This document shows, in pieces, positions 22,801 to 40,279 of a DNA stretch of 64,000 nucleotides. Position 1 is the first letter of the stretch; the number at the start of each line of letters is the position of its first letter. The position numbers and the translations under genes are program-made. A model generated the notes under the pieces. The model did no database searches and was not told the origin of the DNA. It saw nothing but the letters and a program-made list of their open reading frames with translations. This stretch comes from a virus (taxonomy: Duplodnaviria; Caudoviricetes), in IMG/VR virus record IMGVR_UViG_3300033069_000690, positions 26,493-90,492 of that record. One strand, written 5' to 3'.

Positions 22801-25800
22801 AGCAAACAAACTATCCACGTCAAAGTCAGATCCATGCAAAGCTACAAGCTCTTCAGGAGCAATAATGATGTTACTACTAGAATTAGTAGACGCTACCACT
22901 TTAAAAGGAATAGCAGAGTGAATACCCGTTGTAGGGATACGCACTGCATATTGTAGTTTAGTTAGGAAGTCAGGATATACTATTTCACCATCCTTATAAC
23001 CTTTCATATTTAACCACCAAGCAGGAGCAATAACCTCAGCTACCCTTCCTGTGTAAGAGTTTACATCTGATTTCATTAGAAGCTTAGTAGGAACCATGTA
23101 AACAGATTCATCATTGATATCGTCTACCATTTCCTTCTCAGCATCAGTTAACTGTGAGTAATCTCTAATGAACTTTTTGTTCTCTTCCCATGTAGTAAAG
23201 TTATTGTTCAAAGCATATGCACCAAACTTAGCACGTAAGCCACGTTGAACAGAATGAGGTAATGTGTAGAACTTATCTACCATCTTCTTCTGTGCTTCAG
23301 AGAGTTGTTTATAAGTAAGGACTTGTCCACCTACTCTATGTACACCTACACCCTTAGGTGTCTGTAGTACAAGCTTACTACCTCTACCATGTACAGCTTT
23401 AATGCTTTTCTTAGAAGCAGATGACATAAAGCTAATATGAACCTTACCTACTAATGCGGGGAAGTTCAAAGGAACTACATACTCATTATTTTCTTTAGCC
23501 CCAAGTAATTCAGCAAATCTTTCACTACCAGGTACATCACTAATAGATTCAATAATAAGTCTTCTAACTTCTTTCTCATTATAAGTAAATGTACCATCAG
23601 GATTCTTAACATAATTTAAACGCTTTTTAAACTTATCAAATGATAGATTTGTAAGTAAACCATCTATCTCATAGATAGCTTTAGCTACATCAGCATTCTG
23701 ACCATTCACATTAATAAAGTAAGTCAACTGACTAAAGTTAGTAATCTCCCCCTCAGTAGAACGTGGATTAGATTGGATTGAATAATGTTTAGTAGGTACT
23801 ATTACAACACCATTATGATCTTTATTAGATTCTAAGTGCTGGGAAATAGTCTCACCATTCTTTAATGTTCTTGCAGGTCTTCCTACCTTAAATGCAGAAG
23901 CCATATGCAATTCCATAATATTATTCTTTTCCATTTCTTGAGCTAACTCCTTAAGCTCAGGGAACATTTCCTGTAGAGCTGGTGTTAATTCAATACCCGC
24001 ATTCTTAGAGAATCTAGAGATACCAAACTTATCAATGAAGTAGAGTACAGGCTTAATAACATCTCCTAACTGGTAGAAATGACTATAACCAGCCTCTAAG
24101 TGATTTCTCCATTTAGGAAGATAAAACATTTGAGCATCTGTTAATTTATAGTCAATTCCATATATACCTTCTAGACCTTTTGCAAAGTCATTCCATTTAT
24201 TAAAATAATGAGAATCATCATCTGCAACCATAATAGCAATCTCAGTAGGCATACCAATAACATCATTAGCCACTCCTAATTGTCCCGGAGATACAGGACC
24301 ACTAGCACGTTTAGTTAAGTCAGCATTATGTTTGTATTGTCCTATATCACCTGTGTAAAATTGGTTAATGAAATGACCATTCACATAGTTGAGTTTATAG
24401 AATTCTTGTACCGCTATATAAGTATGTAACATTTGATGATACTTATATTGAGGGTACTCTATATCACGTTTCTTTAACTGGGATTTAAATTGTTCTTCGT
24501 AGTTTTTATAAGCACCATCATTAATGAGCTCATAAGTTTCTAATTTTCTAATTAGAGCTGCCATTAATGTTGGTGAGTTATGTTCAATATCTTCACCATG
24601 TTCTCTTGTAGAGAAAGCTTTATTTGAGTCTAAGTAAAAGAAAGCTTCATTAGCATCATGATTAAATCGGTTCTTAACCATATTTAGCAACTGCTTACGA
24701 CCTTGATCTGTTTTTAACTTCTCAGCTATTTCTTTATCAGGTAACCCATCAAAGAATCTTAAAGTAGCTTGTTCCTTATCACCAGCTATCTTCATACCAT
24801 CAGCATACTTTCTCCCATTGGTTTCCACAGGATGACTAGCTAAGCTATCCATCCATTCTCTTCTCTCTATTTGTTGTGTTAGAGCTGCTATAATATGAGC
24901 ATCTGTAGCACTATGAGAACTAATAGGAATCTCATGTCCATAAATCTTAGGCTTATTAGAAAGAGTATAACAGAATTGAATATACTTACCCTCTTTTAAG
25001 TTTTTAGTATTTAACATAGCTTCAAAACCATAACTAAACATACGAGTAACCCACCCAATTGTTTGCTCGTTCTTATACTTAGTTGATATACTATCATCAC
25101 TATGTGTTACACCGTTAATTCTTAATTGGGTCTTATGAGAATCATGTTCTATTAATCTACCTAGACCTATTTTTAAGTAAGGATTATGCTTAAAGAATTT
25201 ATATCCTAAGTTTTCCTTACGTAAGAAATCAGGCATTTGGAAAGCACCACCACGAGATTCCCTTACCTTAGTTAAGTACTCATGAATACGTGTTAACCAA
25301 CTACCAGTTACAAACATATAATTACGTTGCTTATCTCCTGTAATATAACTAGTGTTACCTCCAAAGTTTCTAGTGGTAGCAATTATATCTACAATAGCTC
25401 CTACATAACCATTAATGTCATTTAATAGCTCATCTTTTTTTCCATTAGTTGATAAGTCGTTATTTTTCACCAATTGGAATATATTTTTTAAAGAAGCTAG
25501 TATAACCTCACCTTGGTTCTCAGTACCAAAGAATTGTGAGAAGTTCTTTACATCTAGTAACTTAAATATTGACTGTACCTTGTTAACAGATCTCATATCC
25601 TTATTACCTATAATAGAAAGTACAGCATCTGCTTTATCTTTTCTAGTTTCATAATTAGACTCAACTACTTTAATAACTGATTCTTTAATACGATCATCAA
25701 CAGATTCCTGAGCACCTATTGCACGATTCTTTATATACCTATGATACATCCTATATATAGGATTAGTATTCTCATCTGTTTCCCCATCCTCATTTTCTAA

Positions 25801-28800
25801 ACGGGTAATACCTACAAAAGGATCTCTAGTAATTAGGCTACCAATACCAGAACGTAATCCAGCAATGAAATCTGCTGCATGTCCTTTTCTATAAGTAACA
25901 AGTAATAAGTTATACAATTGCTCATTACTCATATCAGCTGTAGACTCTTTACCAATCATAACTGGATGAGCTTTGAGTTGTTTAGCTGCTTGATAAATAA
26001 ATTTACCTGTATCTTGCTTTCTACCATCGCGCATAGAAACTTTAGAGTATCTATGGATGATATCACCATTCTCATTAAAGATTAATAACTTATTGTTAGT
26101 CATCTTTATTAAAGGAGATATTCCTCTTATTTCCTTCTTTCCTTCCTTAGATATAAATTCGTACCTTCTTGAAGAAAAAGCTAAAGTATACATCTCCGAT
26201 AAGAAATTAAATACAGCTTGAGCTTGAATATTATTTTTACCACCAATCTGATCTGCATTATAAGCTAGTTGTTTTAAGAAATATTCTGATGAGAAATCTG
26301 TACCAACTAACATTTGTTTAGCTAACATGAATACTACTGATCGTGGTATATGATGTATTACCTCTGTTTTAGTAATAGGTAAACCAGATTTGCTAATCAT
26401 AGGTTCTCCCTTACTATTAAGTACAGGAACTTCTTTAGTTACAAACAATGTACTCAATAAGTTCTTTACATTTTCTAATAAGGAAGATGAAAAGTCAAGT
26501 TGATTAGTATCTAAGATCTCATCACGTAATGATGGGTCTTGTAACATCTCCTCCTCTTCCATGGTTAGTTTATTACCTGAAGAAATAACTAAACTACGAT
26601 AAACTTCCTTGAATACATCTAGCTTACCGTTATAAGTAAGCAACTTAGAAAGCCATGCAGGTACTTCTTTTCCTTCTCTAGTAAGTTGTAGCATCTGGTC
26701 TATGAAGTCTTGTCTAACAGCATCTTCAGCTTCTTCAATTGTTAAAGGTACATTGAATAAATCAGTAGTTGTTGCTTTAACTTCTTTACCATCTTTAGTA
26801 GCTTTTACTTCTCTTACTCTTACATCTACTCCTCTAAAGGAACCATCCTTATTTGTGATAGGAGGCCATATCTTAACTCTAATAGCTTTTAATATAGCTT
26901 CTGTAGCTTTATTAAAGTTATCAACATGATCACCATATTCTTGTCCTCTAGTACCAAACCACTCTTTAATTTGAACTAAGTCAGCAGCACCTTCACCATT
27001 TAATTGAGCATTCTTATCAAAGTTATATACACCCTCGTCAATAGCTTCAAATAATTCATTTAACTGTTTCATTTGCTTATATTTAAAGCTGATAATACTT
27101 CTTAAGTAAATAAAGAATTTATGCAATGCTTTAGCTACAAAATTCATATCTTGATTAAAAGCTTGATACTGTCTAGCTAACCATTCCTCTATTTCCCTAT
27201 CAGGGCTAAATTGGTCCCCCATAATATCTCTAGCTGTCTCCAACATACTAGAATACTCTTGGGCTGTTAAATAAGTTTTAGCTACTCTATGGAATGCCTC
27301 ATGTCGTAGGATACGTGAATAGATAGTACCATCATCATTCGTTTGTAAGTAGATTATACCTCTCTCATAACGTCCCCAACGTGATCCTCCAAAACGACGG
27401 ATCATATCTTCCCTAGTTAAGAATACAATGTTCTCTGGGTTAGAAGCAAACTTTTCACCAAATATCTTAGTAGCTGCTTTGATGATAGTATCTCTACTAA
27501 CAGCAGGACCTAAATCTTCCACACTTACAACTTCTTCTGCTAAATCATATCCATTAATATCTTCATCATCATCTGTATTAGAAGAGTTATTGTCAATATG
27601 TTCATCATCAATATTAATTACAGAATCATTTACAGTATCTTCAGAAGCCCTCTGAGCTGGTTCTTCTTCACTTGTATAACCTGGAACTTCTGATGGAGTA
27701 GCTTGGTCTAGTATAATCTCAGTAGGCTCAATAGATTCTAAATCAGTTTCAAATTCCTCTGCCATGGCTTCCCAGGTATTTCTACGTTCAGCATCATCTT
27801 TATTAGGCATACGGATCTCATCCATATTAGTTGGCATACGTAATCCAAATCCATCATTAACATTACTCTCTCCCTCAGATGTAAATGCTTGATCTCCAAT
27901 CATCATCTCTAAGGTTTCTGTTGTTAGCGGTAATGATGTATGGTGAGTTATATTACCTTTATTATCTTTATGAGCATAAGCTGGTAGTCTACCACGCTTA
28001 CCTGTATTAACCCAATCTTGAATGTCTTTAGCACCTAAAGCAGCTAATAAAGAAATACCAGTAAAGTACTCTCTACCTGAATCAGGTTTTCTTTTATTAA
28101 CACGAATGAACTGACGCTCTCCTGTCTTAGTATTAAAGAAAGAAGAGTTAGCTTGTGCTATCCTATTAAATGTTTTTTCAGCAGGACCGCTAGCTCTTGA
28201 GTTCAAGACCATGTTGTTACTAATGAAATCAATCATAAAATCAGTAGGATTAATATCAGCATTAGTTACTTGTCCTCTAGTTATTAAAGAACCGCTTTTC
28301 TTAAAGTTTTTATAAACACGTCCTTGATCATCCACAAGTTCTTTTACGTGAATGTCATAATTAGCTGGTCCACCTTCTTTAGGCATATCAATCTTGACAT
28401 GGAGATTATTATAATCAAATACCTTTCTCCATACTTGGCTTCCATCAGTTTTCTCTATTAAGAAGTACCCAGGATAATTTGGATGCTCTGTATACTTCTT
28501 ACCATCAATAGTTTTATTTCCTTCTACTACCTTACGGCTTCCTTTAGTTCCAGTAATTAAATACTTACTTAAGTAAGCACCATTACTCTCATCTACATTA
28601 ACAGGAGCTTTAGTTTCATCTAATCCAATCTCATTACCTGTAATAGATTCATATACAGCTTCTCTAATAGCTTTGATTAAGTCTAGTACTTTAGCCGTAT
28701 CTTCCTTAGCATCAGATAGCTTAGCCATGATATCATCATGAACTTTAGAACCCGTATTAAGGAAATGGGTAAACACCTCAGATTGCGTACGTTGGAATGT

Positions 28801-31800
28801 CTGACCATCCTTAGTAGTATAATCAAAGTCCTCAACGAAATCTAACCCACCCATGATGATAGGATTACCACCAATAGTAATCTTCTCTAATATACTTTGT
28901 AGTTCCTTAACATCACCTAAGAACTTCTGTAATGGTGCTAAGAAGTTAGCATCAGTACCTTTATTAATTCTACGACGAGATAATGGTACATGTATAGTTT
29001 CTGTGTTACCAGATACATGTTGAATATGTTGTACGTAGTAAGCAATACCAGGTTTAACAACTTTAGGATTAAAGCCCCTATCTCTTACTTCCTTAGCAGT
29101 GTAAATAGCTAAATCCCAAGACTCTCCTTTAGTATTAGAGTTACCTTTCATTAGGTATTTAACTATAAGGTCATTACGTTTAGATTTTAGGAACTCTGCA
29201 AAGTTTGTTAGAGCTCCCCAATTAAGTCTCTTGTTCTTTATAGTATTTACTCTAGCTCTACCTAAGATAGCGTCAGGATGAATAGCGATTTTTACTTTAG
29301 TAGTAGTAACTCCTTTAAAAACTGTAGTTTCTTCTAATTCTGTAAAAGTTTCTGTATCCCATTCAGGATCATTTAAACGCTCTTTAAGGAAATCAGGAAG
29401 CTGATGTACATCAGCACTGTTAACTTCGTTCTTACCAATAACACCTACCTTAGTAATAGTACCATCAGAATTTATCTTTAGAATAGTAACACCAAAAGCT
29501 ACATTACCATTAGGTAGATCATATCTAGTGCGTACATATAAAACCTCATCTCCCTGCTTAAGCATAGGAGCATCATCTTTAGATTGCTTAGTAGCGTAGG
29601 ACTGTGGATAACGAATGTTATGAACAGATCCTTGTATATCAATAGGTAGAGATTCTTCTACTATACTCTCTTCTTTTATAGATTCATTTATCTCTTCTTT
29701 ATTCTCTTCTCTTACTTCCTCATCAGCATCTTCAGTAATTTCTGTATCTGTCTCATCCTCAGTTGTTGTAGTAGGAGTAGCTTGAGATTGTGCTGAAGCT
29801 TGAGAAGGGTTTGGTGTTAATCCAAACTCAGCTTTCTTCAAAGCTTCTAATTGATCTTCTAATGTTTTAACGAATGCATCTATCTCTTCTTGAGTAGGGG
29901 CATTACGAACTTCATTAGGTAATAAGTTTTTACTGGAATTAGTAAATCTTATGTTATTACTAGCTACAGCTACAAAGCTAGTAGCACGTGATGTAGCTAC
30001 ATACATAGCTTCATTAAATCTAGTAAAATCTACTTTACCATTATTTAATGATCCTGGAGCAGCAGCTAGATCCCCAATTGGTTCTAAAAGTATATAAGCC
30101 TCATCAACTGTGTGACTCTGTGCTTCTAGATAATTGAATACCTTAACATCAGTAATACCAAGTTTAGTTAACTGTGTTCTCATAGCTTCTGCTACCTGAT
30201 CGTTGTTAACAATTAATAACTTAGTACGCCCATTGTTCTTAGACTTCTCCATTAAGGTGATTAGCTGTTCAGCAGTTTGTACACCAGTAGTACCGAAAGA
30301 GTGATTATCTCTATCAGTCATAGAGTACATAGCAACAGCATCAGGTATTTCTCCTTTGCCTTTGAACTCTTTCTGTAAGGAAATAATATCAACATCATCT
30401 GTTCTATAAGTAACAGTTAATGGATCAATCATAAACGTATTTACTAATGATGTAGACTCAGTGAAGGAAATAGTATCTCCTCTAGTAATCTGTGAAGGAT
30501 CTCCTAGCATTAGTAATTTTATAGGCTCAGATCTTAAAGCATTTACTTTAGCTATCTTCTCATTAATTTTTGTTAAAGTATCAGCAGTAACTAATCCTGC
30601 TTCGTCTAATATGATTAAATCTTTTTTAGCTAATTCCGCCTCATCTGTAGCTAGGAACTTCTGTATAGGATTTTCCTCATCTATACCAGTAGTTTCACCA
30701 ATAGAGTTAAGCAAAGTATTATTAGCAGACTTAGTAGGAGCTAATGCAATTACATTGTCTTTAGTAATGTTTAATACTTTAAATAATAACTTGATAGCTA
30801 CTTGTGTCTTACCACTACCTGCAAAACCAACAAGAGAAGCGTTCTGTTGTCCAGAGTAGAACCAATCTACTAGCTGACGTAGAGCTATAATTTGTTGCTT
30901 AGTTGGGATAAGATTAAAACTTTTAAACGCTGCAATCTCATTCTGTAGATGAGTAATAGTATTGAATTTAGATTCCACACGATTACGTAAAGCAGACAGA
31001 GCTACCATATCTTGATGTGTGTTTAATAGGTGATCAAAGAAAGCTATTTGTTGTCCCTCATCTACTCCTTCAAATCTACCTTCCGTCTGTACTATCTTCT
31101 CTAATCCTTTTATAAGGACAGATAAATCTGTTGACTTCCTATAATCAGAGATGATTGATTTACCATCGAATGCAATCTCAGGGTAGATAGCCATTAACAC
31201 CTTACTAAAGAAACGCTTAGGATTACTTAGATAACCTACAATACCATTATTACTAACCCCATCTGTTTGAGTGGAACTAGTAGCTCTTAGAAATTCCACA
31301 ACATCTAACATCATAGAGTTATAAGTTGTTTTTAATTCCTCATTAATTTTATCAGTTAATGCTTTCTTATCAGAAGTATTATTAATCATACTCTCTAAAG
31401 CACCTAAAGCATATCCATGTTCTAAGTAATAAACACCATTAGCATCTTGTACTAGTAGTTTTCTTAATTCTTCTATAATCTTCTCTACTAAATCATCAGA
31501 GAACATTCCTAAATTATTACCAAGCACCTGATTAATATTTTCTGATGGCTCATAACTAATACCCATCTGATTTGCAATCGCTTGGGTACTTGTAGTATAA
31601 CTCTTTTGTTGAGCTAAGTCCTTATCAGCAATACGTTTCTTTACTGCTTCTTGGGCTTCAGTTAACTTCTCTTTTAATTCATTAATAGTTTCACGAACAT
31701 TCTTAAATGACTTATCAGAAGTAGTCTGTAAATGCTTGTGATCATTCAATACATTCTCAAGCCACTTTAATCTCTTCTCTAAGTAAGAAAGATTAGATGT

Positions 31801-34494
31801 AGCTAAATAGTCATCATCATTAATAGCTTGGTTTGTTTCCTTAGCTACTTCGTTTAAATAGTGGTCATGTACGAACTCAGCCTCTACCTCATTACGAGTT
31901 CTTGATTGAGCTACATGTGGAGCAGTAATTTTATCTGTATTATCTCTCACATCACTATCTACTTTATCTAAGCGAGTGATATTATTTTTAATCTCTTGGA
32001 GCTTATCAGCATATTCAGTCTCATTCTCTCCACGAGCTTGTTTCATTAACTGATCTAACTCATCAACTGTATTAGCTTCTGAGGATTCTCCTATACTATC
32101 TTGAATGTCCTTAACCTTATTAAGTTCTCCTCTACGGCGATCCTCAATACGGTTATGGATTTCAGTAACATCATCTTCTTCTAACTTAGCATCAGCCGTA
32201 CGAACATAAGCCACAACATCTAAGATGTCATGACCTAATGCTAACATACGTTTAGCCATGTTTGTTTTCTCACGTTGTCTAAGTAAAGAAGTAGAGTAGA
32301 TATCTGCAAGGTGATCTGCTCCAGCTGTCTCTCCTATACCGCGAGTCATCTCTCCGATTCCTTGCTTATAAGCTAGTACATTCTTCTGAGCTTCTGTACC
32401 TTCCTTCCATATCTTTTCGTTAGCCTTACGTTCTCTAGTGAACTCCCCACTAGCAATTTTCTTATTCTCTTCTAGTAACCTAGATATCTGTCTTTGTTTG
32501 AGTGCAGTAAATATCTCGAAGTCATCGTAGATCTCGTTTAAAGATTGCTTAGTCTTTTCAGGATCTAATAATTCTTTAAACAATTTAGTACGTCTACGTT
32601 CCTTTCTTTCCTTTTCTCTAACACTATCGTTGAGAGGATCTTCAGCATTCTTAATAGAAGTAGGTGATGATGTTCTTCCTAACTCATCTGCTTCAGATGC
32701 CATGTTAGCAGCTGTAGCTTCGAATAGTTGTGACTCTAACTCATTCACCATTAAACTATTTCTGATAGCTTGTTTCCTATCATTCCTTGATATACCACGG
32801 AAGTCAAATAACTCTAACACACCACCTAGGTAGTTAGCATCATCTATCTTCTCATACTCTTTCTTAGCGGCTTTAAACCTAGCAATCTCCTGTGCAGCTG
32901 TTTGAGGTGTGAACCCATTAGTTCCCATCTCTCCCATCTTCCTTACATGATCTACGAAGTAATCTTCCTTACCCTTATTTAGGATGTCCTCATACACACC
33001 ATACTTGTATTGCATGTAATCAAACTCATTACCTAAACTAGATGCAGAACCTAATAGGTTACCTGCTTTATGGTATCCATAGAAGTCACTTACTATTGAG
33101 ATAGGATGCATGAATGATAAAGCCCCAGTAGCAATAGCACCAGCATTAACTGATGATCTAAACTCTGAATCTGCATATAGGTTTCTATCTCCTTTATAGA
33201 ACATAGCTTTCTCTACTTCCCAACGATCTTCACCTACTTGTCTAGACACATCAAGACCAGGTAAATTAGTTTCTTTAGACCAGTCTATACCTTTTACATT
33301 ATCTTTAAATCTAGGTTTGTTTCCTAATACACCATCTAAGTATTGTTGAGTAAATAAGAACTGACTACCTTCTTCATTCATCTCTGAATTGAGAGTTAAC
33401 CCCATAGTACCAGCCTTCATAGCTGTACGTGCCCAACGGTTACCCATGCCAATAGTCTCAGCTAATTTAGTATAAGGGGTTACTGCTAATCCTACCTCTA
33501 ACATATCTCCATACATTAGGGCCATGTTCTTAGCACGTAATCTATCCATACCCTCATCAGCTTTTAAACGCATTTGACGTAAAGCTTTCTGATGCTCAGG
33601 CTTTTGTAGATCCTCTTGTGTAAGCTGGTTCTGTTCCATGTACTTACCTATCTGAGTTTGGTATGCCTCATTCCAAGCATCTCCCATCTCAGACTTTGTT
33701 TCAAGATCTCTAGACTTCCATGTAGCAGCTAACTCTCCAAGAGTAAATCCTATTGTAGTAGCAGCTTGGTATTGCTTAGGAATAGGTAAAGCAGAACTTG
33801 CAGCCATACGTTCTAAAGCTTTTTTAGCAACCCATGGAGCTATGATCTGTGTCATTTGTATACCAAGCATACTAGCACTACTACCTACATCTGTACCAGC
33901 TTCATACTTTAAGTAATCAGCAATATTAGTATTAGGTTCCTGTGCATAGATTTGTTGCATGATCTTATCTGGTAAGTCGAGATTACGTTTAGCCATCTCT
34001 TCTACACCTCCACCAATCATTCCTGTTAAACCGCTACCATGTTTTATTTCCTCCTCTAATCTATTCTTCTCAGCTAGAGAGTCAGCAATATACTTTTCTT
34101 TCTTAGCTAATGTTAACTCTAACTTCTTACTAAGCATATCAGTAAGATATTGATTGTTTGAGTCTTGAGCAACTTGCAATTGCGAACGAACGTCATCTGC
34201 ATAGTTATCAAACTCATCTACCTTCTTATCTATCTGACGTATCTGATGTTGGGTAGAGCTTACACCTGCTTGAGCCATAGCATTAAGGAAACTGTTTACA
34301 GTAATACCATTACCGTAACTGGTTTGCATTAAGTTAGGACTTAAGGAAAGCTTAGGGTCATTGTGTAATAGTACAGGAGTATCTGTAACTCCCTTTAAGA
34401 AATTCTGCTCTGATGCAAAACTACTTGATGGGGCTATTCCCTGTAAGGCTTGGAATCTTTCTGTGAATGATGTAGGATTATTTCCTTCTGGCAT
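19888..34494 (-). CDS. Giant virion-packaged RNA polymerase fusion (two-barrel RNAP, SF1 helicase, zincin)
   Basis: VRIPTTG...HGSDFDVD catalytic loop (22813-22827); GFAGSGKT, APT, DEAG, GDPSQ and YVATSRA helicase motifs; RHEAFH. Sits among the giant cargo genes as in crAss-like phages. Confidence 0.82.
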   Translation of the reverse strand: MPEGNNPTSFTERFQALQGIAPSSSFASEQNFLKGVTDTPVLLHNDPKLSLSPNLMQTSYGNGITVNSFLNAMAQAGVSSTQHQIRQIDKKVDEFDNYADDVRSQLQVAQDSNNQYLTDMLSKKLELTLAKKEKYIADSLAEKNRLEEEIKHGSGLTGMIGGGVEEMAKRNLDLPDKIMQQIYAQEPNTNIADYLKYEAGTDVGSSASMLGIQMTQIIAPWVAKKALERMAASSALPIPKQYQAATTIGFTLGELAATWKSRDLETKSEMGDAWNEAYQTQIGKYMEQNQLTQEDLQKPEHQKALRQMRLKADEGMDRLRAKNMALMYGDMLEVGLAVTPYTKLAETIGMGNRWARTAMKAGTMGLTLNSEMNEEGSQFLFTQQYLDGVLGNKPRFKDNVKGIDWSKETNLPGLDVSRQVGEDRWEVEKAMFYKGDRNLYADSEFRSSVNAGAIATGALSFMHPISIVSDFYGYHKAGNLLGSASSLGNEFDYMQYKYGVYEDILNKGKEDYFVDHVRKMGEMGTNGFTPQTAAQEIARFKAAKKEYEKIDDANYLGGVLELFDFRGISRNDRKQAIRNSLMVNELESQLFEATAANMASEADELGRTSSPTSIKNAEDPLNDSVREKERKERRRTKLFKELLDPEKTKQSLNEIYDDFEIFTALKQRQISRLLEENKKIASGEFTRERKANEKIWKEGTEAQKNVLAYKQGIGEMTRGIGETAGADHLADIYSTSLLRQREKTNMAKRMLALGHDILDVVAYVRTADAKLEEDDVTEIHNRIEDRRRGELNKVKDIQDSIGESSEANTVDELDQLMKQARGENETEYADKLQEIKNNITRLDKVDSDVRDNTDKITAPHVAQSRTRNEVEAEFVHDHYLNEVAKETNQAINDDDYLATSNLSYLEKRLKWLENVLNDHKHLQTTSDKSFKNVRETINELKEKLTEAQEAVKKRIADKDLAQQKSYTTSTQAIANQMGISYEPSENINQVLGNNLGMFSDDLVEKIIEELRKLLVQDANGVYYLEHGYALGALESMINNTSDKKALTDKINEELKTTYNSMMLDVVEFLRATSSTQTDGVSNNGIVGYLSNPKRFFSKVLMAIYPEIAFDGKSIISDYRKSTDLSVLIKGLEKIVQTEGRFEGVDEGQQIAFFDHLLNTHQDMVALSALRNRVESKFNTITHLQNEIAAFKSFNLIPTKQQIIALRQLVDWFYSGQQNASLVGFAGSGKTQVAIKLLFKVLNITKDNVIALAPTKSANNTLLNSIGETTGIDEENPIQKFLATDEAELAKKDLIILDEAGLVTADTLTKINEKIAKVNALRSEPIKLLMLGDPSQITRGDTISFTESTSLVNTFMIDPLTVTYRTDDVDIISLQKEFKGKGEIPDAVAMYSMTDRDNHSFGTTGVQTAEQLITLMEKSKNNGRTKLLIVNNDQVAEAMRTQLTKLGITDVKVFNYLEAQSHTVDEAYILLEPIGDLAAAPGSLNNGKVDFTRFNEAMYVATSRATSFVAVASNNIRFTNSSKNLLPNEVRNAPTQEEIDAFVKTLEDQLEALKKAEFGLTPNPSQASAQSQATPTTTTEDETDTEITEDADEEVREENKEEINESIKEESIVEESLPIDIQGSVHNIRYPQSYATKQSKDDAPMLKQGDEVLYVRTRYDLPNGNVAFGVTILKINSDGTITKVGVIGKNEVNSADVHQLPDFLKERLNDPEWDTETFTELEETTVFKGVTTTKVKIAIHPDAILGRARVNTIKNKRLNWGALTNFAEFLKSKRNDLIVKYLMKGNSNTKGESWDLAIYTAKEVRDRGFNPKVVKPGIAYYVQHIQHVSGNTETIHVPLSRRRINKGTDANFLAPLQKFLGDVKELQSILEKITIGGNPIIMGGLDFVEDFDYTTKDGQTFQRTQSEVFTHFLNTGSKVHDDIMAKLSDAKEDTAKVLDLIKAIREAVYESITGNEIGLDETKAPVNVDESNGAYLSKYLITGTKGSRKVVEGNKTIDGKKYTEHPNYPGYFLIEKTDGSQVWRKVFDYNNLHVKIDMPKEGGPANYDIHVKELVDDQGRVYKNFKKSGSLITRGQVTNADINPTDFMIDFISNNMVLNSRASGPAEKTFNRIAQANSSFFNTKTGERQFIRVNKRKPDSGREYFTGISLLAALGAKDIQDWVNTGKRGRLPAYAHKDNKGNITHHTSLPLTTETLEMMIGDQAFTSEGESNVNDGFGLRMPTNMDEIRMPNKDDAERRNTWEAMAEEFETDLESIEPTEIILDQATPSEVPGYTSEEEPAQRASEDTVNDSVINIDDEHIDNNSSNTDDDEDINGYDLAEEVVSVEDLGPAVSRDTIIKAATKIFGEKFASNPENIVFLTREDMIRRFGGSRWGRYERGIIYLQTNDDGTIYSRILRHEAFHRVAKTYLTAQEYSSMLETARDIMGDQFSPDREIEEWLARQYQAFNQDMNFVAKALHKFFIYLRSIISFKYKQMKQLNELFEAIDEGVYNFDKNAQLNGEGAADLVQIKEWFGTRGQEYGDHVDNFNKATEAILKAIRVKIWPPITNKDGSFRGVDVRVREVKATKDGKEVKATTTDLFNVPLTIEEAEDAVRQDFIDQMLQLTREGKEVPAWLSKLLTYNGKLDVFKEVYRSLVISSGNKLTMEEEEMLQDPSLRDEILDTNQLDFSSSLLENVKNLLSTLFVTKEVPVLNSKGEPMISKSGLPITKTEVIHHIPRSVVFMLAKQMLVGTDFSSEYFLKQLAYNADQIGGKNNIQAQAVFNFLSEMYTLAFSSRRYEFISKEGKKEIRGISPLIKMTNNKLLIFNENGDIIHRYSKVSMRDGRKQDTGKFIYQAAKQLKAHPVMIGKESTADMSNEQLYNLLLVTYRKGHAADFIAGLRSGIGSLITRDPFVGITRLENEDGETDENTNPIYRMYHRYIKNRAIGAQESVDDRIKESVIKVVESNYETRKDKADAVLSIIGNKDMRSVNKVQSIFKLLDVKNFSQFFGTENQGEVILASLKNIFQLVKNNDLSTNGKKDELLNDINGYVGAIVDIIATTRNFGGNTSYITGDKQRNYMFVTGSWLTRIHEYLTKVRESRGGAFQMPDFLRKENLGYKFFKHNPYLKIGLGRLIEHDSHKTQLRINGVTHSDDSISTKYKNEQTIGWVTRMFSYGFEAMLNTKNLKEGKYIQFCYTLSNKPKIYGHEIPISSHSATDAHIIAALTQQIERREWMDSLASHPVETNGRKYADGMKIAGDKEQATLRFFDGLPDKEIAEKLKTDQGRKQLLNMVKNRFNHDANEAFFYLDSNKAFSTREHGEDIEHNSPTLMAALIRKLETYELINDGAYKNYEEQFKSQLKKRDIEYPQYKYHQMLHTYIAVQEFYKLNYVNGHFINQFYTGDIGQYKHNADLTKRASGPVSPGQLGVANDVIGMPTEIAIMVADDDSHYFNKWNDFAKGLEGIYGIDYKLTDAQMFYLPKWRNHLEAGYSHFYQLGDVIKPVLYFIDKFGISRFSKNAGIELTPALQEMFPELKELAQEMEKNNIMELHMASAFKVGRPARTLKNGETISQHLESNKDHNGVVIVPTKHYSIQSNPRSTEGEITNFSQLTYFINVNGQNADVAKAIYEIDGLLTNLSFDKFKKRLNYVKNPDGTFTYNEKEVRRLIIESISDVPGSERFAELLGAKENNEYVVPLNFPALVGKVHISFMSSASKKSIKAVHGRGSKLVLQTPKGVGVHRVGGQVLTYKQLSEAQKKMVDKFYTLPHSVQRGLRAKFGAYALNNNFTTWEENKKFIRDYSQLTDAEKEMVDDINDESVYMVPTKLLMKSDVNSYTGRVAEVIAPAWWLNMKGYKDGEIVYPDFLTKLQYAVRIPTTGIHSAIPFKVVASTNSSSNIIIAPEELVALHGSDFDVDSLFAVRTEILFKKEGGIKRLLTLKNPDGTIVVEPGQRLGWPHGFEIDNFEQMNMIQGSTDTELKFNEFDKQLTTYKELMKKYEDLMNSKDIDRDIKKEYTANYKLAYEAYEGTLKNKKAYAMIYMLLHDRNEKDMGQPISFDPIKKDFFDLDLELYHPSKSIKVYGKDGSVTPEFIDLMKQDSPDIEIVQKFKEWGITAENISKVIAIDPEANTFKITNKEIKNNIFKDNSIGVITKLKLIYGRADMNETRNPNNLLDQLKTYNDNFAGVALTGAFANFVKALAYVNYVSQGSHMVDKEGKAVTLKLNEGYNSISKTEKSKGFTGRKVWEVLDTLINGAIDNVKEQALEIINATNQTGPTIALMVGLGVPLNDITLFMRQPVLVRDLVSLRGKQRTKWVTEEAKKFTKKELRSPLTTEDLILALEESTKVGNEYSKLSHKAKLTQVKVFREFNKLQPVVDAMSNAASVANLTKDFEVTFEEGQQMIDKINKSKEYTGFANGSFMSLPQFSSAEDAFITSFDLVNNAVDIYNPKLISKLANLITSYMKKTAYTEDGIETENIDSTIRREFTRYLITSASNSSEIDAIWKQPLEIKNGDKSFYVTGADAWIQHFGKVINDLASNSEYAHNAFLEKLTAVKSKGLYRIKWNAGTNLNDSTVSAQLKHDLSLLPPFFIEQLVKYSALENGHEYGLKSFSQLLDPLDIAEQAKTYNALLKSFIKDGPLFDKIKDHFAISFALNNPSQIAKHQGQQERYLPAIKWLSVKNMTTYGITNPHEADFILDYNDVKYEDKKSKEEKTIKYAKPPVFLRTTNKVNGKESLAVKIKDEGKVAYYRTITRVNKKSRGYDANLSYLTTGYYINDHFNLPHEILGVPPTEAGNPELTYKLDKVSPHQLLKVGDTVFVHDYTDFYNNNLEYYEVTEVKQGGKEEITRYGETYTNLKDVTYTLKKQEKSKVNFSDEENAQIQDIIKNNTGC

Positions 34495-34495
34495 G

Positions 34496-35143
34496 TTAAT
34501 TGTCTAAGTATTTGGCAAATGTTGTAAGGTAATCGAATACTGTACTGTTCTTTGGCAGTACACCTTTATTATGTTTCTTAATGAATTGATTTAAAACATG
34601 TTGTGCTGCTCCATGTGCTGTTGTAACATCTAGGTTAGCATCATGTAGTTTACTCTTAAAGGTACTTAAATATACCTTAGCACCCCCCACTCCTTGGAAG
34701 TGGACTAGTGCTGTTAATAAGTCGTCTTCAATGAAATTATATTGTTGTTTCAGCTTAGCTACAATAGGTTTATAATCTGTATTAAATACATACTCTGCAT
34801 ATTGTTCTTGAGCTTGTGGTGAATTTAAAAACTCATTTTTAGTTTTAACCCCAGTTACTTCTTGGATACGTTTCCAATGCCCACTAGTTTTACCATCTTT
34901 CCTATTTAAATCTCTAATAGGATCTCCATAAAGAAATTGAAATTTACCAGCAGCTGTAGAATTAGGATTAGTAGCTTTGTAAGGATCTGGTACGTTAGAC
35001 TCTACCCTACCAATAGCTTTAGAAAACTTTTTAAACTCTGTACCAGCGTCACTTACCGTTTCCTTCGTATCCCCATTGAGTTGCTGGTTGTTGCTCCCTG
35101 GGGCTGATAGGGGTTTGAGGTAGTAGTACCGTCTAATAATGCT
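34496..35143 (-). CDS. Start-less open frame encoding a lysozyme-like / lytic transglycosylase domain; probable frameshift extension of 35053-37362
   Basis: Read by hand: IGRVES...YKATNPNSTAAGKFQF...EFLNSPQAQE...ALVHFQGVGG. No ATG/GTG/TTG before the GTG at 34690. Confidence 0.72.
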   Translation of the reverse strand, partial: SIIRRYYYLKPLSAPGSNNQQLNGDTKETVSDAGTEFKKFSKAIGRVESNVPDPYKATNPNSTAAGKFQFLYGDPIRDLNRKDGKTSGHWKRIQEVTGVKTKNEFLNSPQAQEQYAEYVFNTDYKPIVAKLKQQYNFIEDDLLTALVHFQGVGGAKVYLSTFKSKLHDANLDVTTAHGAAQHVLNQFIKKHNKGVLPKNSTVFDYLTTFAKYLDN

Positions 35144-37362
35144 TTAAAGGTATCTTTAGAATAAAGACGTCCTCCTGCATAGTTTTCTAATGCTTGTTGG
35201 AATGTTACCAAGTCTTTAGCCGTTTCCTTATTAGGATGTTGTGTGTAAGCATTTACTAAAGTACTAAAGGCTTGTGATGCAGATGTTCTAATATCTTTAT
35301 CTATACTATTAGTATTAAGAATAAAGTTATTTATACCTGTAACAAAGTTTGTAGCTAGTTTAGGGTTATCAACTATTCTAGTAGTAAGCTCATCAAGATT
35401 CTCTTGAGCCCTATTAGCTGCGTAGTTCTGTTCCCATGGTCCTAAGTTCTTTCCTAATAAAGCATCACTTCCTGCCATATCCCTATTGTACCTAGATACT
35501 GTAGCGGGATTATTCATTGGTACTTCTATACTTGTAGGGATAGTAATATATTTTTGTTCATCACCTTTAGTATTTACAACAATAGGTTCTATATCTAATA
35601 TACCAGCAGCTTTCATACGTTCTACAACCCTATTTATCTCATTAGATTCATATGCCCAAGAAGGCCATATAGCTCCTACATCCAATCTCTGATCATAAGC
35701 TCCTATATCTGTATTACCAGCAGCTTCTAAAGCATTCTGAATTGTAGTGTAACCTTCTTCAGTAGCAGGTATCATGATCTTACCTTTAATAAATTTACGA
35801 TCTCCTATGTTATAAGTATTATCCGCCCCAACAAATGGTTGCCATGTTGCTGAAGACATTCCTATTAAATTCTTACCTAATTGAACTGTTTGATTCTTAG
35901 CTAGATCCATTTGAGCTTTATCATAATCTGTTACTAGTTTAGTTAATCCCTCAGTAGTAGAAATATCTATCCCAGCTTTTAGTGCTTCTCTTTGCACAGC
36001 TAAGAAACTTGGGTCTTCTTTAAATTGAGACAATTGAGATTTTATATCTGCTAGTATAGAAGCTTCTCCCTTATGTAAATCTGTAGATCTCTTAGCAGCA
36101 TCACCTGCTACAGCGGTAGCAAATTTACCTGGCGTTAATCCTGAAGTAACATTTCCAACAATATCTCCAAACATAACCTCTGGTTTATACCCAGGAGTTT
36201 TTCTTAATTCTCCTAAAGCTTTAAGAGATCTCCCTAAAGAACTATTCGTATTAGCTATTGATTCATAGATAGAAGCAGTTACACCCATTTCTGGTGAACT
36301 ATATTCAGCTATAGTAGCAGGAGAATTAAATGTAGCTTTAGGGTCAATACTAACTCCAGTAAAGGCATGTAACCTATCATCCCATTGGCTCATATCTAAA
36401 CCAACAGAAGATACGATCTCCTTAATGCTAACTGATTTAGACTTTTTAAATACTGCAAAAGGTTCTACTACTTTATCAGAATCAGCTCCTGGTCCTTTAG
36501 GATTACCTGATGGCCCAGCTAATTTGCTACTATCCATTGTTAATTGTTTTGCTCCTCTAAACATAATCATTGCTTTAGCCTGATCCATATTAGAGAGCTC
36601 CTCGAACTTCTTACCACCAAATGTCTGAACAAATCCAGGAGTATCTTTTAAGATGTCATCTGGTCTTATTCCTTTATAGTCTCCTTGCCATTGAGCGAAG
36701 ACAGGTAAAGTCATTAGTCCTAATGCTTGTGTTTTTCCTAAGTTTTGTAACCCAGCAAAATCTCTACCATCTACTGTAATAGTAGAAGTTTTTCCATCAG
36801 CTCCTACTACCTCTCTAGTTTGTAATTGAGTTTTTTCCCAATCATCTATTAAAGGTTTAATAACAGGTTCTAAACTTGTTCGTGACTTATAATTTAATTG
36901 GCTGTAGTCAGTATTCTTCTCAGAGTCCCAGTTGTAAGTATCAGGACCACTAACATACTCATTAGTAGCAGACCATGTAGCATTTCCCTCATTCTTCATC
37001 TTCTCTGTAAGAGCAGTAGTATGTAATGTGTAAGCATCGTTGTATTTATTTAAACGAGGCTGTATCCTATTTACTAATCCGTTAGCCCTAACACTTAATT
37101 GTTCTGCTGTCATAGAAGGATCGCTAACTAGTTTAGATAACTCATTATTAAACTCTTCCCTGATGGCTGGTAAGTGCACACGCTCATCTACTGAGCCGCT
37201 AATAGCTTTAGCTTTAGAGAAGACATCATTAAAGTTCTCTTGTGCTGTACCCACAGCTTTATCCCAACGTTGTTGTTTCATATCCGCAGCTTTCATTACC
37301 AAGTCATATGGTAAGATAGGTGGGTTGTATTGCGGTATATGTTCGTACCTATTGATTCCCAT
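35053..37362 (-). CDS. Virion cargo/ejection protein
   Basis: N-terminal RYEHIPQYNPPILPYDL plus coiled coil. Lies between the muzzle/cargo genes and the RNAP gene. Confidence 0.65.
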   Translation of the reverse strand: MGINRYEHIPQYNPPILPYDLVMKAADMKQQRWDKAVGTAQENFNDVFSKAKAISGSVDERVHLPAIREEFNNELSKLVSDPSMTAEQLSVRANGLVNRIQPRLNKYNDAYTLHTTALTEKMKNEGNATWSATNEYVSGPDTYNWDSEKNTDYSQLNYKSRTSLEPVIKPLIDDWEKTQLQTREVVGADGKTSTITVDGRDFAGLQNLGKTQALGLMTLPVFAQWQGDYKGIRPDDILKDTPGFVQTFGGKKFEELSNMDQAKAMIMFRGAKQLTMDSSKLAGPSGNPKGPGADSDKVVEPFAVFKKSKSVSIKEIVSSVGLDMSQWDDRLHAFTGVSIDPKATFNSPATIAEYSSPEMGVTASIYESIANTNSSLGRSLKALGELRKTPGYKPEVMFGDIVGNVTSGLTPGKFATAVAGDAAKRSTDLHKGEASILADIKSQLSQFKEDPSFLAVQREALKAGIDISTTEGLTKLVTDYDKAQMDLAKNQTVQLGKNLIGMSSATWQPFVGADNTYNIGDRKFIKGKIMIPATEEGYTTIQNALEAAGNTDIGAYDQRLDVGAIWPSWAYESNEINRVVERMKAAGILDIEPIVVNTKGDEQKYITIPTSIEVPMNNPATVSRYNRDMAGSDALLGKNLGPWEQNYAANRAQENLDELTTRIVDNPKLATNFVTGINNFILNTNSIDKDIRTSASQAFSTLVNAYTQHPNKETAKDLVTFQQALENYAGGRLYSKDTFKALLDGTTTSNPYQPQGATTSNSMGIRRKR

Positions 37363-37366
37363 TATT

Positions 37367-40279
37367 TTACTCTTTGCCTCCTTTCTTATATCCTCTTGGA
37401 TACGCTTTCTTCATGTAGTTATTAATGTAATCTTTTTGTAATCCGAATGCTCCTATCTTTCCGATATCCTCAAAGCCTGAATTGATGTAATCAGTTTTCA
37501 TAGCTTTGTTCTTAGCATTCATATCATCTACTGTTAACTTAGTAGCCATATTACTTCTCATCAAATCAATGTTAGAAGCGTCAGCTTTAAACTTACCTTC
37601 AGCATTGATGTTCATTATCTTTTCTTGCTCTTCAGCTTTAGTCTTTATTAGATTAGTTCCTAATGCTACGTCACCAGCTAAATTATAATTACCTGAGTTA
37701 CGCATGTTATAACGTCCTAAGTTATAGCCCTCATTGACTTTACGCTGTATTTGTTCATTGCTTAGGTCATTCCATTTCATGCGAGCATTAACCATGTAGT
37801 CCTCAGGATTAGAATGATCTGCTTTACCAAAGATACCTTTACCAAACTTCCATGCAATAGGAAGAATGTTAAGAGCAGACATTGTAGGATCCATATCTGA
37901 GAAGACTCCAGGTTGTGCTTCTGAAACAGGATTGTTATTCTGCCACTCATTCCATGTAGGAGGACCTACTAAAGCGTTAGTATCATAACGTTGGACTGTA
38001 CCTCCCTTAGCCATCTTAGCTTCTTTTCTTTCACGAAGCCTCTGTGCTGATATAAGACTCTTTTCTAATTGTTGTTTACCTTTCAAGTCTCTTTCCATAT
38101 ATTCTTTTGTTCTGTTCTTAGGTATTACTGTTGTACCTGCTGGTGCTTGTACAGTACCATCAGGGTTTATGAGATTAGGATCAGTTGGATGTGGAGGTAT
38201 GTTAATAAAGTTACGAAGTACCATACCATTACTAGTAAGTAACTCTCCTTTCTTCATACTTGCCTTTTGTCCACTTTGTATTCCTGAACCTTCTACGTTT
38301 ATTGTTGTGTTATTCATACCATCTTGTTCTTGTTTTTGTACTCCTCCCTCAATGGCTCCTAAGAAAGGAACAAGAGCTTGGAATGATTGTAAACCCATTC
38401 CTATACCTTGCTTTTCCTTATCACCAAAGATGCTTGTGTTCTGTACCAAACCATTAGTACCTTTAGCTACTTGCTGTATTGTACCTACATGTGTAGCTCC
38501 CATAGTGAGTGCATCCATACCTACAGCTCCAGCAATGTTACCAGCTCCTCTAGAAGCATTGAATGTTTTATCTTGACCTCCAATAGCTTTAGCTCCTGCA
38601 TCTGTGATCTGATCTGTAAGACCCATTGACATTGCATCAAGTCCTCCTTCAACTGCACCATATAAAGCTCCGCCAATACCTTTTAGTAAACCACCTTTAG
38701 CCATTTTTACTACACCTCCTAGTTTATTTTTTTGAATTTCTGTAGGTATAAATTGATTTTTAGTTGCACCTTTCCAACCATTTGTAGGATATTTACTATC
38801 TAAAAAGTTTAAAGCTGCTTCATTATTCTCATTAACATATAAATTTCTAAAATGTTGTAGTTCCCCATCGTTAAGTGGTCTTAATAAATTTTTAAGACCT
38901 GTTTTATCTTTACCCCTTATAACTTGCTCCATACCAGCATTTATAAAGTCACTACTAGTTTTCTCATATAAATGATTTAGTGTATTTGTTGGTACACCTT
39001 GTGTAGTTAAATTTGGTTTATACTTATTTACAGTTGCTGTTTGGTTAACCATATTTTCAGCATCCTTAGCTGTATAAGAATAGATAGGCTTATCAGAAGG
39101 ATTATGCTTCTTCATAATTTCAAAATCTTTTATATTAGGATATCCTGAATGAAATCGAGCAGCTGCTGCTCTAATTTCCTCTTCTGTATAATTTACTTCT
39201 TTAGGTATAAAGTTAGTAATCCCCTTTACATCAGATTTAAGTAGAGATTTACCTACACTTGGTATACCAAACGTAGCTTCATCCAATAGATTAACTCCAA
39301 ACATTCTAGGTATCTGTGATAGCCCAACTGCTCCATACCCAACACCACCTGCTGTTAATGCAGCTGCCATTGCAATAGGATCTGAAAGAACGTCGTTACT
39401 TAAACCTTCTTCTTTGTGACCATTAATATAATCTTGGATAGTATACTTTTCAGGATTAGTTGAAAGCTTTTTAGCACGTGCATTATACACCCTATCTTGA
39501 GGAGTAGATATAGTTTTTCCTAAAGTTGTTTTAGTAGTACTATTCATACGAGTATTAGCTTCTTGTACTAATTTTTGATTGAACCAAGATAGGTCTGTAG
39601 ACCCTCCTTTACCATACTTCATCTTATTATTAGGAAGCGTCACATTACTTTGTTTAGCTCTATAACCCATCTTAAGTAATTGCTCTGGTGTGTAGTTACC
39701 TGCTGTCTGTGGCTTATCCATCATGACTCCTCTAGTATCCATGTAACCTCCTGTTGGCTTATCTTCTACGATAGGTGCAGGTGGGTTATCTCCATATACT
39801 ATTTGTCTTTGTGGTGTACTAATAGGACGCTCTACAACTGATTTTATTTTGTCTACAGCCTTTATGATTGGGGCTGTAACAGAAGGAGTAGTAGGACGTG
39901 GTTTAGGTTTAGGTTTAGGTGATGGTTTTGGAGTACTTTGTATACTAGGCATAGGAGGTTCTCCCCTAATTTCAAGTACACCATATTCATGATTAGTCGG
40001 TAATGTAGATTTAGAAGTATAATTTATAGTATTTTGATTTATGTTTTCAATTCTAGGATCATCAGGATACTTATCTTTTATCATCTTTCTTATTGCTTTG
40101 AAAGTAGCTAAATCTATTGTTTCCATTTTTATAGCTTTAAAAGCAGCTTCTTGAGCTTTAGTATTTTTATAATTTAAAACACTATCTGCATGAGTAGCTA
40201 TAGGACCTGTAGTATACCCACCATTACTAAACATATTAGGTACTTCTAGACTAGGTTTATATTTTTTCTTTTTTATCAT
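37367..40279 (-). CDS. Virion cargo protein with Gly-rich hydrophobic segments and repeated xxGG motifs
   Basis: MFSNGG, KYGKGG, KNKLGG, MAKGG (twice), KKGG. PKPKP linker. Ala/Gly-rich hydrophobic stretches. Confidence 0.65.
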   Translation of the reverse strand: MIKKKKYKPSLEVPNMFSNGGYTTGPIATHADSVLNYKNTKAQEAAFKAIKMETIDLATFKAIRKMIKDKYPDDPRIENINQNTINYTSKSTLPTNHEYGVLEIRGEPPMPSIQSTPKPSPKPKPKPRPTTPSVTAPIIKAVDKIKSVVERPISTPQRQIVYGDNPPAPIVEDKPTGGYMDTRGVMMDKPQTAGNYTPEQLLKMGYRAKQSNVTLPNNKMKYGKGGSTDLSWFNQKLVQEANTRMNSTTKTTLGKTISTPQDRVYNARAKKLSTNPEKYTIQDYINGHKEEGLSNDVLSDPIAMAAALTAGGVGYGAVGLSQIPRMFGVNLLDEATFGIPSVGKSLLKSDVKGITNFIPKEVNYTEEEIRAAAARFHSGYPNIKDFEIMKKHNPSDKPIYSYTAKDAENMVNQTATVNKYKPNLTTQGVPTNTLNHLYEKTSSDFINAGMEQVIRGKDKTGLKNLLRPLNDGELQHFRNLYVNENNEAALNFLDSKYPTNGWKGATKNQFIPTEIQKNKLGGVVKMAKGGLLKGIGGALYGAVEGGLDAMSMGLTDQITDAGAKAIGGQDKTFNASRGAGNIAGAVGMDALTMGATHVGTIQQVAKGTNGLVQNTSIFGDKEKQGIGMGLQSFQALVPFLGAIEGGVQKQEQDGMNNTTINVEGSGIQSGQKASMKKGELLTSNGMVLRNFINIPPHPTDPNLINPDGTVQAPAGTTVIPKNRTKEYMERDLKGKQQLEKSLISAQRLRERKEAKMAKGGTVQRYDTNALVGPPTWNEWQNNNPVSEAQPGVFSDMDPTMSALNILPIAWKFGKGIFGKADHSNPEDYMVNARMKWNDLSNEQIQRKVNEGYNLGRYNMRNSGNYNLAGDVALGTNLIKTKAEEQEKIMNINAEGKFKADASNIDLMRSNMATKLTVDDMNAKNKAMKTDYINSGFEDIGKIGAFGLQKDYINNYMKKAYPRGYKKGGKE

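Follow-up and report, generated by a model that had tools for sequence, protein, structure and literature searches.

Introduction

Ribosomal frameshifting into the -1 frame is a textbook mechanism, and in T7 gene 10A/10B and in capsid or tail proteins of the Listeria or SPP1 type it adds a C-terminal segment to a fraction of the copies of a virion protein. Those extensions are decorative or adhesive (for example of the Ig or FN3 type) and are not cell-wall hydrolases. In T7 gp16, an internal core protein that is ejected before the DNA, an Slt-type domain helps in the crossing of the peptidoglycan. Here we describe a locus in a stretch of 64,000 nucleotides (nt), called the window throughout, that forms part of a 90.5-kilobase (kb) IMG/VR virus record (IMGVR_UViG_3300033069_000690), in which a gene of virion cargo type of an uncultured crAss-like phage very probably ends in a programmed -1 ribosomal frameshift that would append a lytic-transglycosylase-like domain. 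The analysis covers the layout of the locus, its conservation, the substitutions of the heptamer at which slippage would occur and the predicted fold of the appended domain.

Crassviruses eject large protein cargos before their DNA, and in the structural work on crAss001 an analogy with T7 was drawn for the cargo proteins gp45 and gp46, together with a proposed envelope-spanning channel (PMC10172136). The crossing of peptidoglycan is not addressed in that work, and the words peptidoglycan and hydrolase do not occur in the paper (PMC10172136). A full-text literature search returned no report of a programmed frameshift in crAss-like phages or their cargo genes.

Two overlapping frames and their predicted products

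The elements of the locus, all of which are on the minus strand of the window, are listed here in the order in which a ribosome would meet them (aa, amino acids; ORF, open reading frame).

37362..35053, minus strand: 0-frame gene of 769 aa (P0002), from the ORF list and its translation, lying between the muzzle gene and the giant gene
34496..35143, minus strand: -1 frame ORF of 215 codons plus stop, whose first ATG/GTG/TTG is the GTG at 34690 (codon 152)
35110..35116, minus strand: candidate slippery heptamer A_AAC_CCC, in phase (TCA AAC CCC = S749 N750 P751)
35104..35109, minus strand: spacer TATCAG, 6 nt
35071..35103, minus strand: hairpin CCCCA-GG-GAG / CUC-AA-UGGGG with a 13-nt loop, a candidate stimulator, from the RNAfold minimum-energy structure
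35053..35055, minus strand: 0-frame stop TAA, at which the short product (769 aa) is complete
34499..35053, minus strand: lytic-transglycosylase-like domain (model residues 20-204), from AlphaFold2, structure comparison and profile
35000..35002, minus strand: codon for the Glu of RVES, the putative catalytic residue (number 48 in the -1 ORF, number 788 in the predicted 955-aa product)
34492..34498, minus strand: junction TAA-C-ATG, in which a single nt separates the -1 ORF stop from the start codon of the 4868-aa gene

The 769-aa ORF ends in ...TTTSNPYQPQGATTSNSMGIRRKR-TAA and shares its last 91 nt with the -1 ORF. Slippage after N750-P751 would append the 204 aa encoded by the codons from 35110 onward, so that the predicted long product has 751 + 204 = 955 aa, with the junction ...TSNP-LSAPGSNNQQLNGDTK (...TSNP-LSAPGSNNQQ...). 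A preliminary description of the locus had proposed most of this, namely a frame open from 35143 to 34496 with no ATG, GTG or TTG before 34690, standing in the -1 relation to the 769-aa gene and overlapping its end by 91 nt; an in-phase A-AAC-CCC at 35116-35110; a 6-nt spacer followed by a hairpin at 35103-35071; and a product of about 955 aa. Each of these elements was found where it had been placed, and the hairpin is contained in the minimum-energy structure returned by RNAfold. With its 91-nt overlap, its first canonical start only at codon 152 and a confident predicted fold, the start-less ORF has the properties of a real protein segment.

Other ways in which the two frames might be joined were considered and rejected. 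Stop-codon reassignment does not apply to frames that are one base apart, and read-through in frame 0 ends after 16 codons; transcriptional slippage was set aside for lack of a long homopolymer.

Conservation of the arrangement in relatives

Relatives were collected from the contigs that carry homologues of the 769-aa protein, from scans of IMG/VR and JGI metagenomes with an alignment of the domain, and by looking up truncated gene calls. This gave 16 further independently assembled loci (about 12 distinct sequences) from different samples, studies and assemblers (Logan, ENA, IMG/VR, JGI), all of which were read as DNA. The preliminary description had named the persistence of the split, the heptamer and the hairpin in relatives as one check, and the outcome was uniform: all 16 keep the -1 layout, the start-less domain ORF, an in-phase heptamer, a spacer of 4-6 nt and a hairpin, even where the upstream protein has fallen to 32% identity or is no longer recognisable. 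The overlap of the domain ORF with the upstream gene ranges from 52 to 109 nt across loci, and in every locus of this frameshift type ATG, GTG and TTG are absent from the domain frame until deep inside the folded domain. A contrast group is formed by loci whose domain frame opens no more than about 40 codons before a canonical start. None of these has this layout; the arrangement is missing when the domain begins with an ATG of its own.

In the closest relative, known from assemblies of two runs (L002, L003), the domain is 90% identical and the same two frames are retained with no insertion or deletion. Its heptamer and hairpin are identical to those of the window, the spacer differs (TAT to AAG in L002), and its upstream gene has clearly diverged further than either the cassette or the domain. 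For the 769-aa protein itself six homologues were found, with lengths of 752-772 aa and identities of 68-32%, and none of the six is fused to the domain. On their contigs (L004-L010) the domain ORF lies in the -1 frame with an overlap of 55-109 nt, a canonical start first appears after 43-158 codons, and every one of these loci has an in-phase A_AAC_CCC. The loci added by the metagenome scans and the gene-call look-ups have G_GGA_AAG (L011, L013/L014, L016, L039, L044, L066), A_AAT_TTT (L065) or again A_AAC_CCC (L038, L067) at this place. The P0073 contig, known from gene calls alone, has the same layout beside a gene of 6324 aa. IMG/VR scans with the window's own P0001 and P0002 gave no match, nor did blastn of the window's sequences against GenBank phages.

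These loci bear directly on the alternative that the preliminary description had raised, a 1-nt assembly error by which one base lost or gained in a C or G run splits a continuous 955-aa gene. Short homopolymers (CCCC, GGGG) do occur in the overlap. However, the same frame relation recurs in 16 other assemblies with diverged flanks and differing heptamers, no relative has a continuous ORF, and the six upstream-protein homologues all stop at 752-772 aa. The independent assemblies effectively refute such an error, and we consider the chance that it explains the split to be negligible.

The position at which the -1 frame opens is also informative. In L010, L013, L016 and L039 a -1-frame stop stands 0-1 codon before the heptamer, which confines any shift to the 45-64 nt that run from the heptamer to the 0-frame stop; the heptamer itself is the precise point at which the frame becomes open in L010 and L013. 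This is pertinent to a second alternative, that the domain is a small protein in its own right, translated either from a non-canonical start (ATT, ATC, ATA or ACG) or by re-initiation after the 0-frame stop. Near-cognate codons are indeed present in the window (ATT ATT at 35140-35135, ACG at 35068 and 35059, ATT at 35014), initiation of the Bacteroidota type needs no Shine-Dalgarno sequence, and the domain stands alone with an ATG in other phages. However, no near-cognate codon is positionally conserved across the lineages, two of which leave the frame no room before the heptamer, and no -1-frame ATG, GTG or TTG lies near the 0-frame stop (the GTG that follows the TAA is in frame 0). As a separate protein would also leave the constant -1 frame, the overlap, the in-phase heptamer and the hairpin unexplained, we regard it as improbable.

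The downstream end of the -1 ORF is likewise placed with some regularity. In 9 of 13 relatives (L004, L005, L007, L009, L010, L044, L065, L066 and L067) its stop is within -4 to +7 nt of the next ATG, and in L011, L013, L016 and L039 a gap of 35-40 nt precedes that ATG. Genes around the locus are tightly packed, with neighbours that abut or share 1-4 nt, so that an untranslated gap of 560 nt behind the 769-aa gene would be out of character, a point in favour of a frameshift. The domain ORF is open over 172-221 codons across the loci of frameshift type, and is longer in L011 and L039. In these two G_GGA_AAG loci (L011:1411-3411 and L039:1438-3228) the -1 ORF runs for 666 and 596 codons, respectively, and a region of about 400 aa follows the transglycosylase domain.

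Public gene calls do not reproduce the ORF. They shorten it to fragments of 113-123 aa (P0003, P0015, P0046, P0073, P0096; loci L002, L065, L066, L067) that begin at an internal ATG, GTG or TTG and leave a gap of roughly 100-200 nt behind the upstream gene. The shortened calls are a systematic annotation artefact of the frameshift, and because of them both the domain and its upstream link are hidden in public protein sets.

The candidate slippery heptamer and the downstream hairpin

An in-phase heptamer of the form X_XXY_YYZ is present in 17/17 loci of frameshift type. Within the window's own group A_AAC_CCC is unchanged and in phase at all ten loci, and the protein alignment shows no change at N750 or P751; across lineages three heptamers occupy the same place (A_AAC_CCC, G_GGA_AAG and A_AAT_TTT). 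The background rate of in-phase X_XXY_YYZ was 0.0044 per codon in the window's large genes and 0.0086 per codon in the relatives' upstream genes, from which about 0.1-0.2 in-phase heptamers would be expected by chance in a 20-codon overlap. Yet one is found in every lineage, always 4-6 nt 5' of the hairpin, which chance does not explain. Of the three heptamers, two are classical bacterial slippery sites, and the exchange of A_AAC_CCC for the classical G_GGA_AAG or A_AAT_TTT at the same spacing is what would be expected of a functional slippery site, an interpretation that the sequences support.

The spacer behind the heptamer varies in sequence, and in all loci the hairpin begins 4-6 nt past the heptamer (against the 5-9 nt expected for a stimulatory structure). 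In the window the hairpin has an energy of -12.3 kcal/mol (RNAfold), ranks in the top 1.5% of 42-nt segments in the surrounding 9 kb and forms a local GC island (0.57 vs 0.36). Across loci the 42-nt segment after the heptamer is in the top 0.15-2.5% of all segments of its locus and has a GC content of 0.43-0.62 vs 0.29-0.37, and mononucleotide shuffles gave z values of -2.2 to -4.3 in all lineages except the window and L005, the weakest of the window type (z about -1). A core CCYCAG...CUGGGG is common to the loci, and the upper stems vary by lineage. Perfect 9-bp stems are formed in L013 and L016 (CCUCAAACC/GGUUUGGGG and CCCCAGACC/GGUCUGGGG), which are one A-U to G-C exchange apart. As MAFFT failed to place the 3' arms of L011, L013 and L016, their alternative upper stems were read from single-sequence folds. 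A covariance model found exactly one strong match in each locus of frameshift type and none in 15 loci with a normal start; in its structural alignment 79% of cells are paired, and the stem is mostly conserved in sequence.

Several observations weigh against a programmed frameshift and have to be set beside these results. With C at its Y positions, A_AAC_CCC presents a poor A-site slippery triplet in the systems in which this has been tested, so that efficiency in the window's lineage may be low. The window's own hairpin is no more stable than its shuffles (z -0.19 for 106 nt and -0.98 for 60 nt), and a formal covariation test on the common register gave 0 compensatory pairs, with no excess over shuffles. 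Moreover, CCYCAG...CUGGGG is also coding sequence, for PQ...PLG in frame 0 and for S-G in the -1 frame, which makes a constraint on the peptide inseparable from one on the RNA. With both sets of results in view, we regard the hairpin as a probable structure and as a candidate stimulator.

The hidden domain resembles lytic transglycosylases

In an AlphaFold2 model of the sequence encoded after the shift (mean predicted local distance difference test score 88.2; predicted template modelling score 0.81), the first 19 residues form a low-confidence linker rich in Ser, Gly, Asn and Gln, and the remainder (residues 20-204) forms the domain. Lytic transglycosylases occupied all of the top 35 rows of a structure comparison (VIA) made with this model, led by the catalytic domain of Cj0843 at Z 10.8 (138 residues at 3.1 Å); Slt70, MltF, MltE and phiKZ gp144 scored Z 8.9-10.3, with gp144 at 10.3. 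A profile of the domain matched phiKZ gp144 (PDB 3BKH) at E 1.3e-10 with the ES motif aligned, its sole significant match in the PDB. The Glu of RVES, which is followed by Ser like the catalytic Glu at the end of helix 1 in this enzyme class, corresponds to the invariant E37 of a 48-sequence alignment (A2), aligned to the ES of gp144, and the alignment also keeps an A-x-G-K-Y/F-Q motif and an H-F-x-G motif. The lytic-transglycosylase-like signature noted in the preliminary description is thus borne out both by the profile and by the fold, and the model supports assignment of the hidden domain to the alpha-helical lytic transglycosylase/lysozyme-like fold (Slt, GH23 type).

Sequence families were less informative. 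Pfam, SLT-type families included, had no match to the domain at E up to 1; in nine homologues the region of the domain drew no family at E up to 0.01, and PHROGs gave one weak match, to a family of unknown function (E 0.007). HMMER searches of 1.8 billion representative proteins returned 226 homologues of residues ~30-175, which occur as stand-alone proteins, at the C-termini of mid-sized proteins and often at the N-terminus of proteins of 2,000-4,000 aa; among the best 150 of the 226, none resembles P0002. In 50,697 GenBank phage records, tblastn with three versions of the domain found it only in the cyanophage Leptolyngbya phage Lbo-JY46, as the in-frame C-terminus of a 495-aa protein. Metagenomic proteins of 2,000-4,000 aa with the domain at their extreme N-terminus include P0029, P0033, P0044, P0052, P0059, P0071, P0112, P0114 and P0136, and two of these giant proteins also bear a histidine phosphatase domain. 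The place of the domain is therefore not fixed: it passes between the 3' end of a gene and the 5' end of the giant gene that comes next.

Conservation of the domain also speaks to a third alternative, that the -1 ORF is an untranslated relic, a domain decaying after a frameshift mutation. The want of a canonical start codon is what a relic might show. However, an ORF that is intact over 172-221 codons, and up to 666 in L011, that retains the catalytic Glu-Ser and 24 invariant positions down to 32% identity and that has a confidently predicted fold does not look like one, and a relic would not persist intact in every lineage. We therefore judge this to be very improbable. The domain is under selection and enzyme-like, and a muralytic activity that yields 1,6-anhydro-muropeptides would be predicted for it.

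The carrier protein and its genome context

The 1514-aa gene at 46340..41796 matches the Pfam muzzle family PF25731 crAss_MUZ at E 1.3e-98, which places the locus in a Crassvirales-like context; a muzzle gene is also present in L005 and L009 and in the records of L011, L013 and L016, where it lies upstream. Behind the muzzle gene of the window the order is 505 aa, 970 aa, 769 aa, the start-less ORF, 4868 aa and 2030 aa.

The preliminary description had treated the 769-aa gene as a cargo gene and its product as an ejection protein. The gene follows the muzzle gene, where a cargo gene would stand, and in an Atlas feature search, a language-model lead, P0002 was nearest to crAss_CARGO2 clusters (score 0.92, 184 shared features); position and lead together would suggest such a role. 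Pfam, PHROGs and the PDB gave no match to the protein or to its family profile. Pfam PF25712 crAss_CARGO2 matched nothing at E up to 10 anywhere in the 90-kb record, and nothing in seven family members or in three related records; as this search matched nowhere, related records included, it is weak evidence. Carriers from the A_AAC_CCC and G_GGA_AAG groups (alignments A8 and A12) have no detectable homology, with an hhalign probability of 0.15%, and pairwise BLASTP between the carriers of the two groups was negative. Divergence may have erased any resemblance between the carriers, or the cassette of heptamer, hairpin and transglycosylase may have moved between carriers as a module. Carriers of both groups still share the C-terminal tail NPQ...PLG, which is encoded by the arms of the hairpin.

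The giant downstream gene had been called the RNA polymerase gene in the preliminary description. In this 4868-aa ORF (window 19888-34494, minus strand), residues 1203-1337 match superfamily 1 (SF1) helicase Pfam families (AAA_30, E 4e-13), and the motifs HEAFH and DFDVD occur at residues 2398 and 3890, respectively. The ORF had no match in the PDB or PHROG, and the DFDVD motif is the one feature that would point to a polymerase. The adjoining 2030-aa ORF (window 13796-19888, minus strand) has Pfam PD-(D/E)XK nuclease and ART-PolyVal domains, a polyvalent-protein architecture next to the giant gene. On the other side of the locus, the 970-aa neighbour (window 37367-40279, minus strand) is mildly hydrophobic over one segment around residue 302 (Kyte-Doolittle mean of 1.54 over 19 residues), reminiscent of the membrane helix that has been predicted in crAss001 gp45 (PMC10172136); it had no match in PHROG at E up to 0.001. 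No tRNA genes were found within the window.

Discussion

How a programmed -1 frameshift of the simultaneous-slippage type would operate here can be set out in some detail, although the slippage itself, its efficiency and the incorporation of its product into virions are what we infer from the arrangement. Ribosomes on the 769-aa gene would reach A_AAC_CCC, their P and A sites occupied by tRNA-Asn and tRNA-Pro, respectively, and would be slowed by the hairpin that starts 6 nt downstream. A fraction would slip back by one base (AAC to AAA, CCC to CCC) and read the -1 frame on to 34496, whereas non-shifted ribosomes would end at 35053 and yield the 769-aa protein. The shifted ribosomes would make the 955-aa protein, the last ~185 residues of which would be the transglycosylase domain behind its Ser/Gly/Asn/Gln-rich linker, and two isoforms would result, presumably at a set ratio. 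Judged by its position, the carrier would be a protein that is packed in the crAss-like virion and ejected before the DNA, and the minor long form would cut peptidoglycan locally at entry, in the manner of the transglycosylase domain of T7 gp16.

The frameshift might also gate translation of the giant gene, although this is speculation and we think it rather doubtful. Only shifted ribosomes would cover the 560 nt to TAA-C-ATG, where they could terminate and re-initiate; output of the 4868-aa helicase/RNA polymerase-type protein would then be tied, at a constant ratio, to that of the isoform that bears the transglycosylase.

The locus is relevant both to the biology of crassvirus entry and to annotation. 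A transglycosylase appended by frameshift to a protein in the cargo position would provide, for one environmental branch of the crassviruses, a concrete and testable answer to the question of entry. In addition, three heptamers before one conserved hairpin offer a natural series for the study of slippery-site choice in translation of the Bacteroidota type.

Comparison with known systems

The cargo genes of PhicrAss001, gp45 (C1) and gp46 (C2), have the same genome position as the 769-aa gene, between the muzzle and the giant RNA polymerase-associated genes; the Pfam crAss_CARGO2 family finds nothing in the window's genome or in three related records. The phiKZ gp144 endolysin shares with the hidden domain the profile match, the aligned ES motif and the fold (Z 10.3). 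It differs in being a soluble endolysin with an N-terminal peptidoglycan-binding domain, and its identity to the domain is about 18%. In T7 gp16 the domain is N-terminal, in frame and on every copy, whereas here it would be C-terminal and added through a frameshift. With T7 10A/10B and the Listeria and SPP1-type proteins the shared feature is a C-terminus added by frameshift, and the difference is that the extension here is of hydrolase type.

Closest in layout are lambda G / G-T and the tail chaperones of double-stranded DNA phages, in which, as proposed here, ribosomes slip into the -1 frame close to the 3' end of a gene of the virion module, so that the major product is short and the minor one has an added C-terminal extension. 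The lambda heptamer G_GGA_AAG is also used by part of this family, whereas the window's lineage has A_AAC_CCC. The lambda site works without a strong structure, whereas here a hairpin follows the heptamer. Finally, G and G-T act as a tail chaperone; here the carrier is a cargo-position protein of a crAss-like podovirus, and the predicted extension is an enzyme domain.

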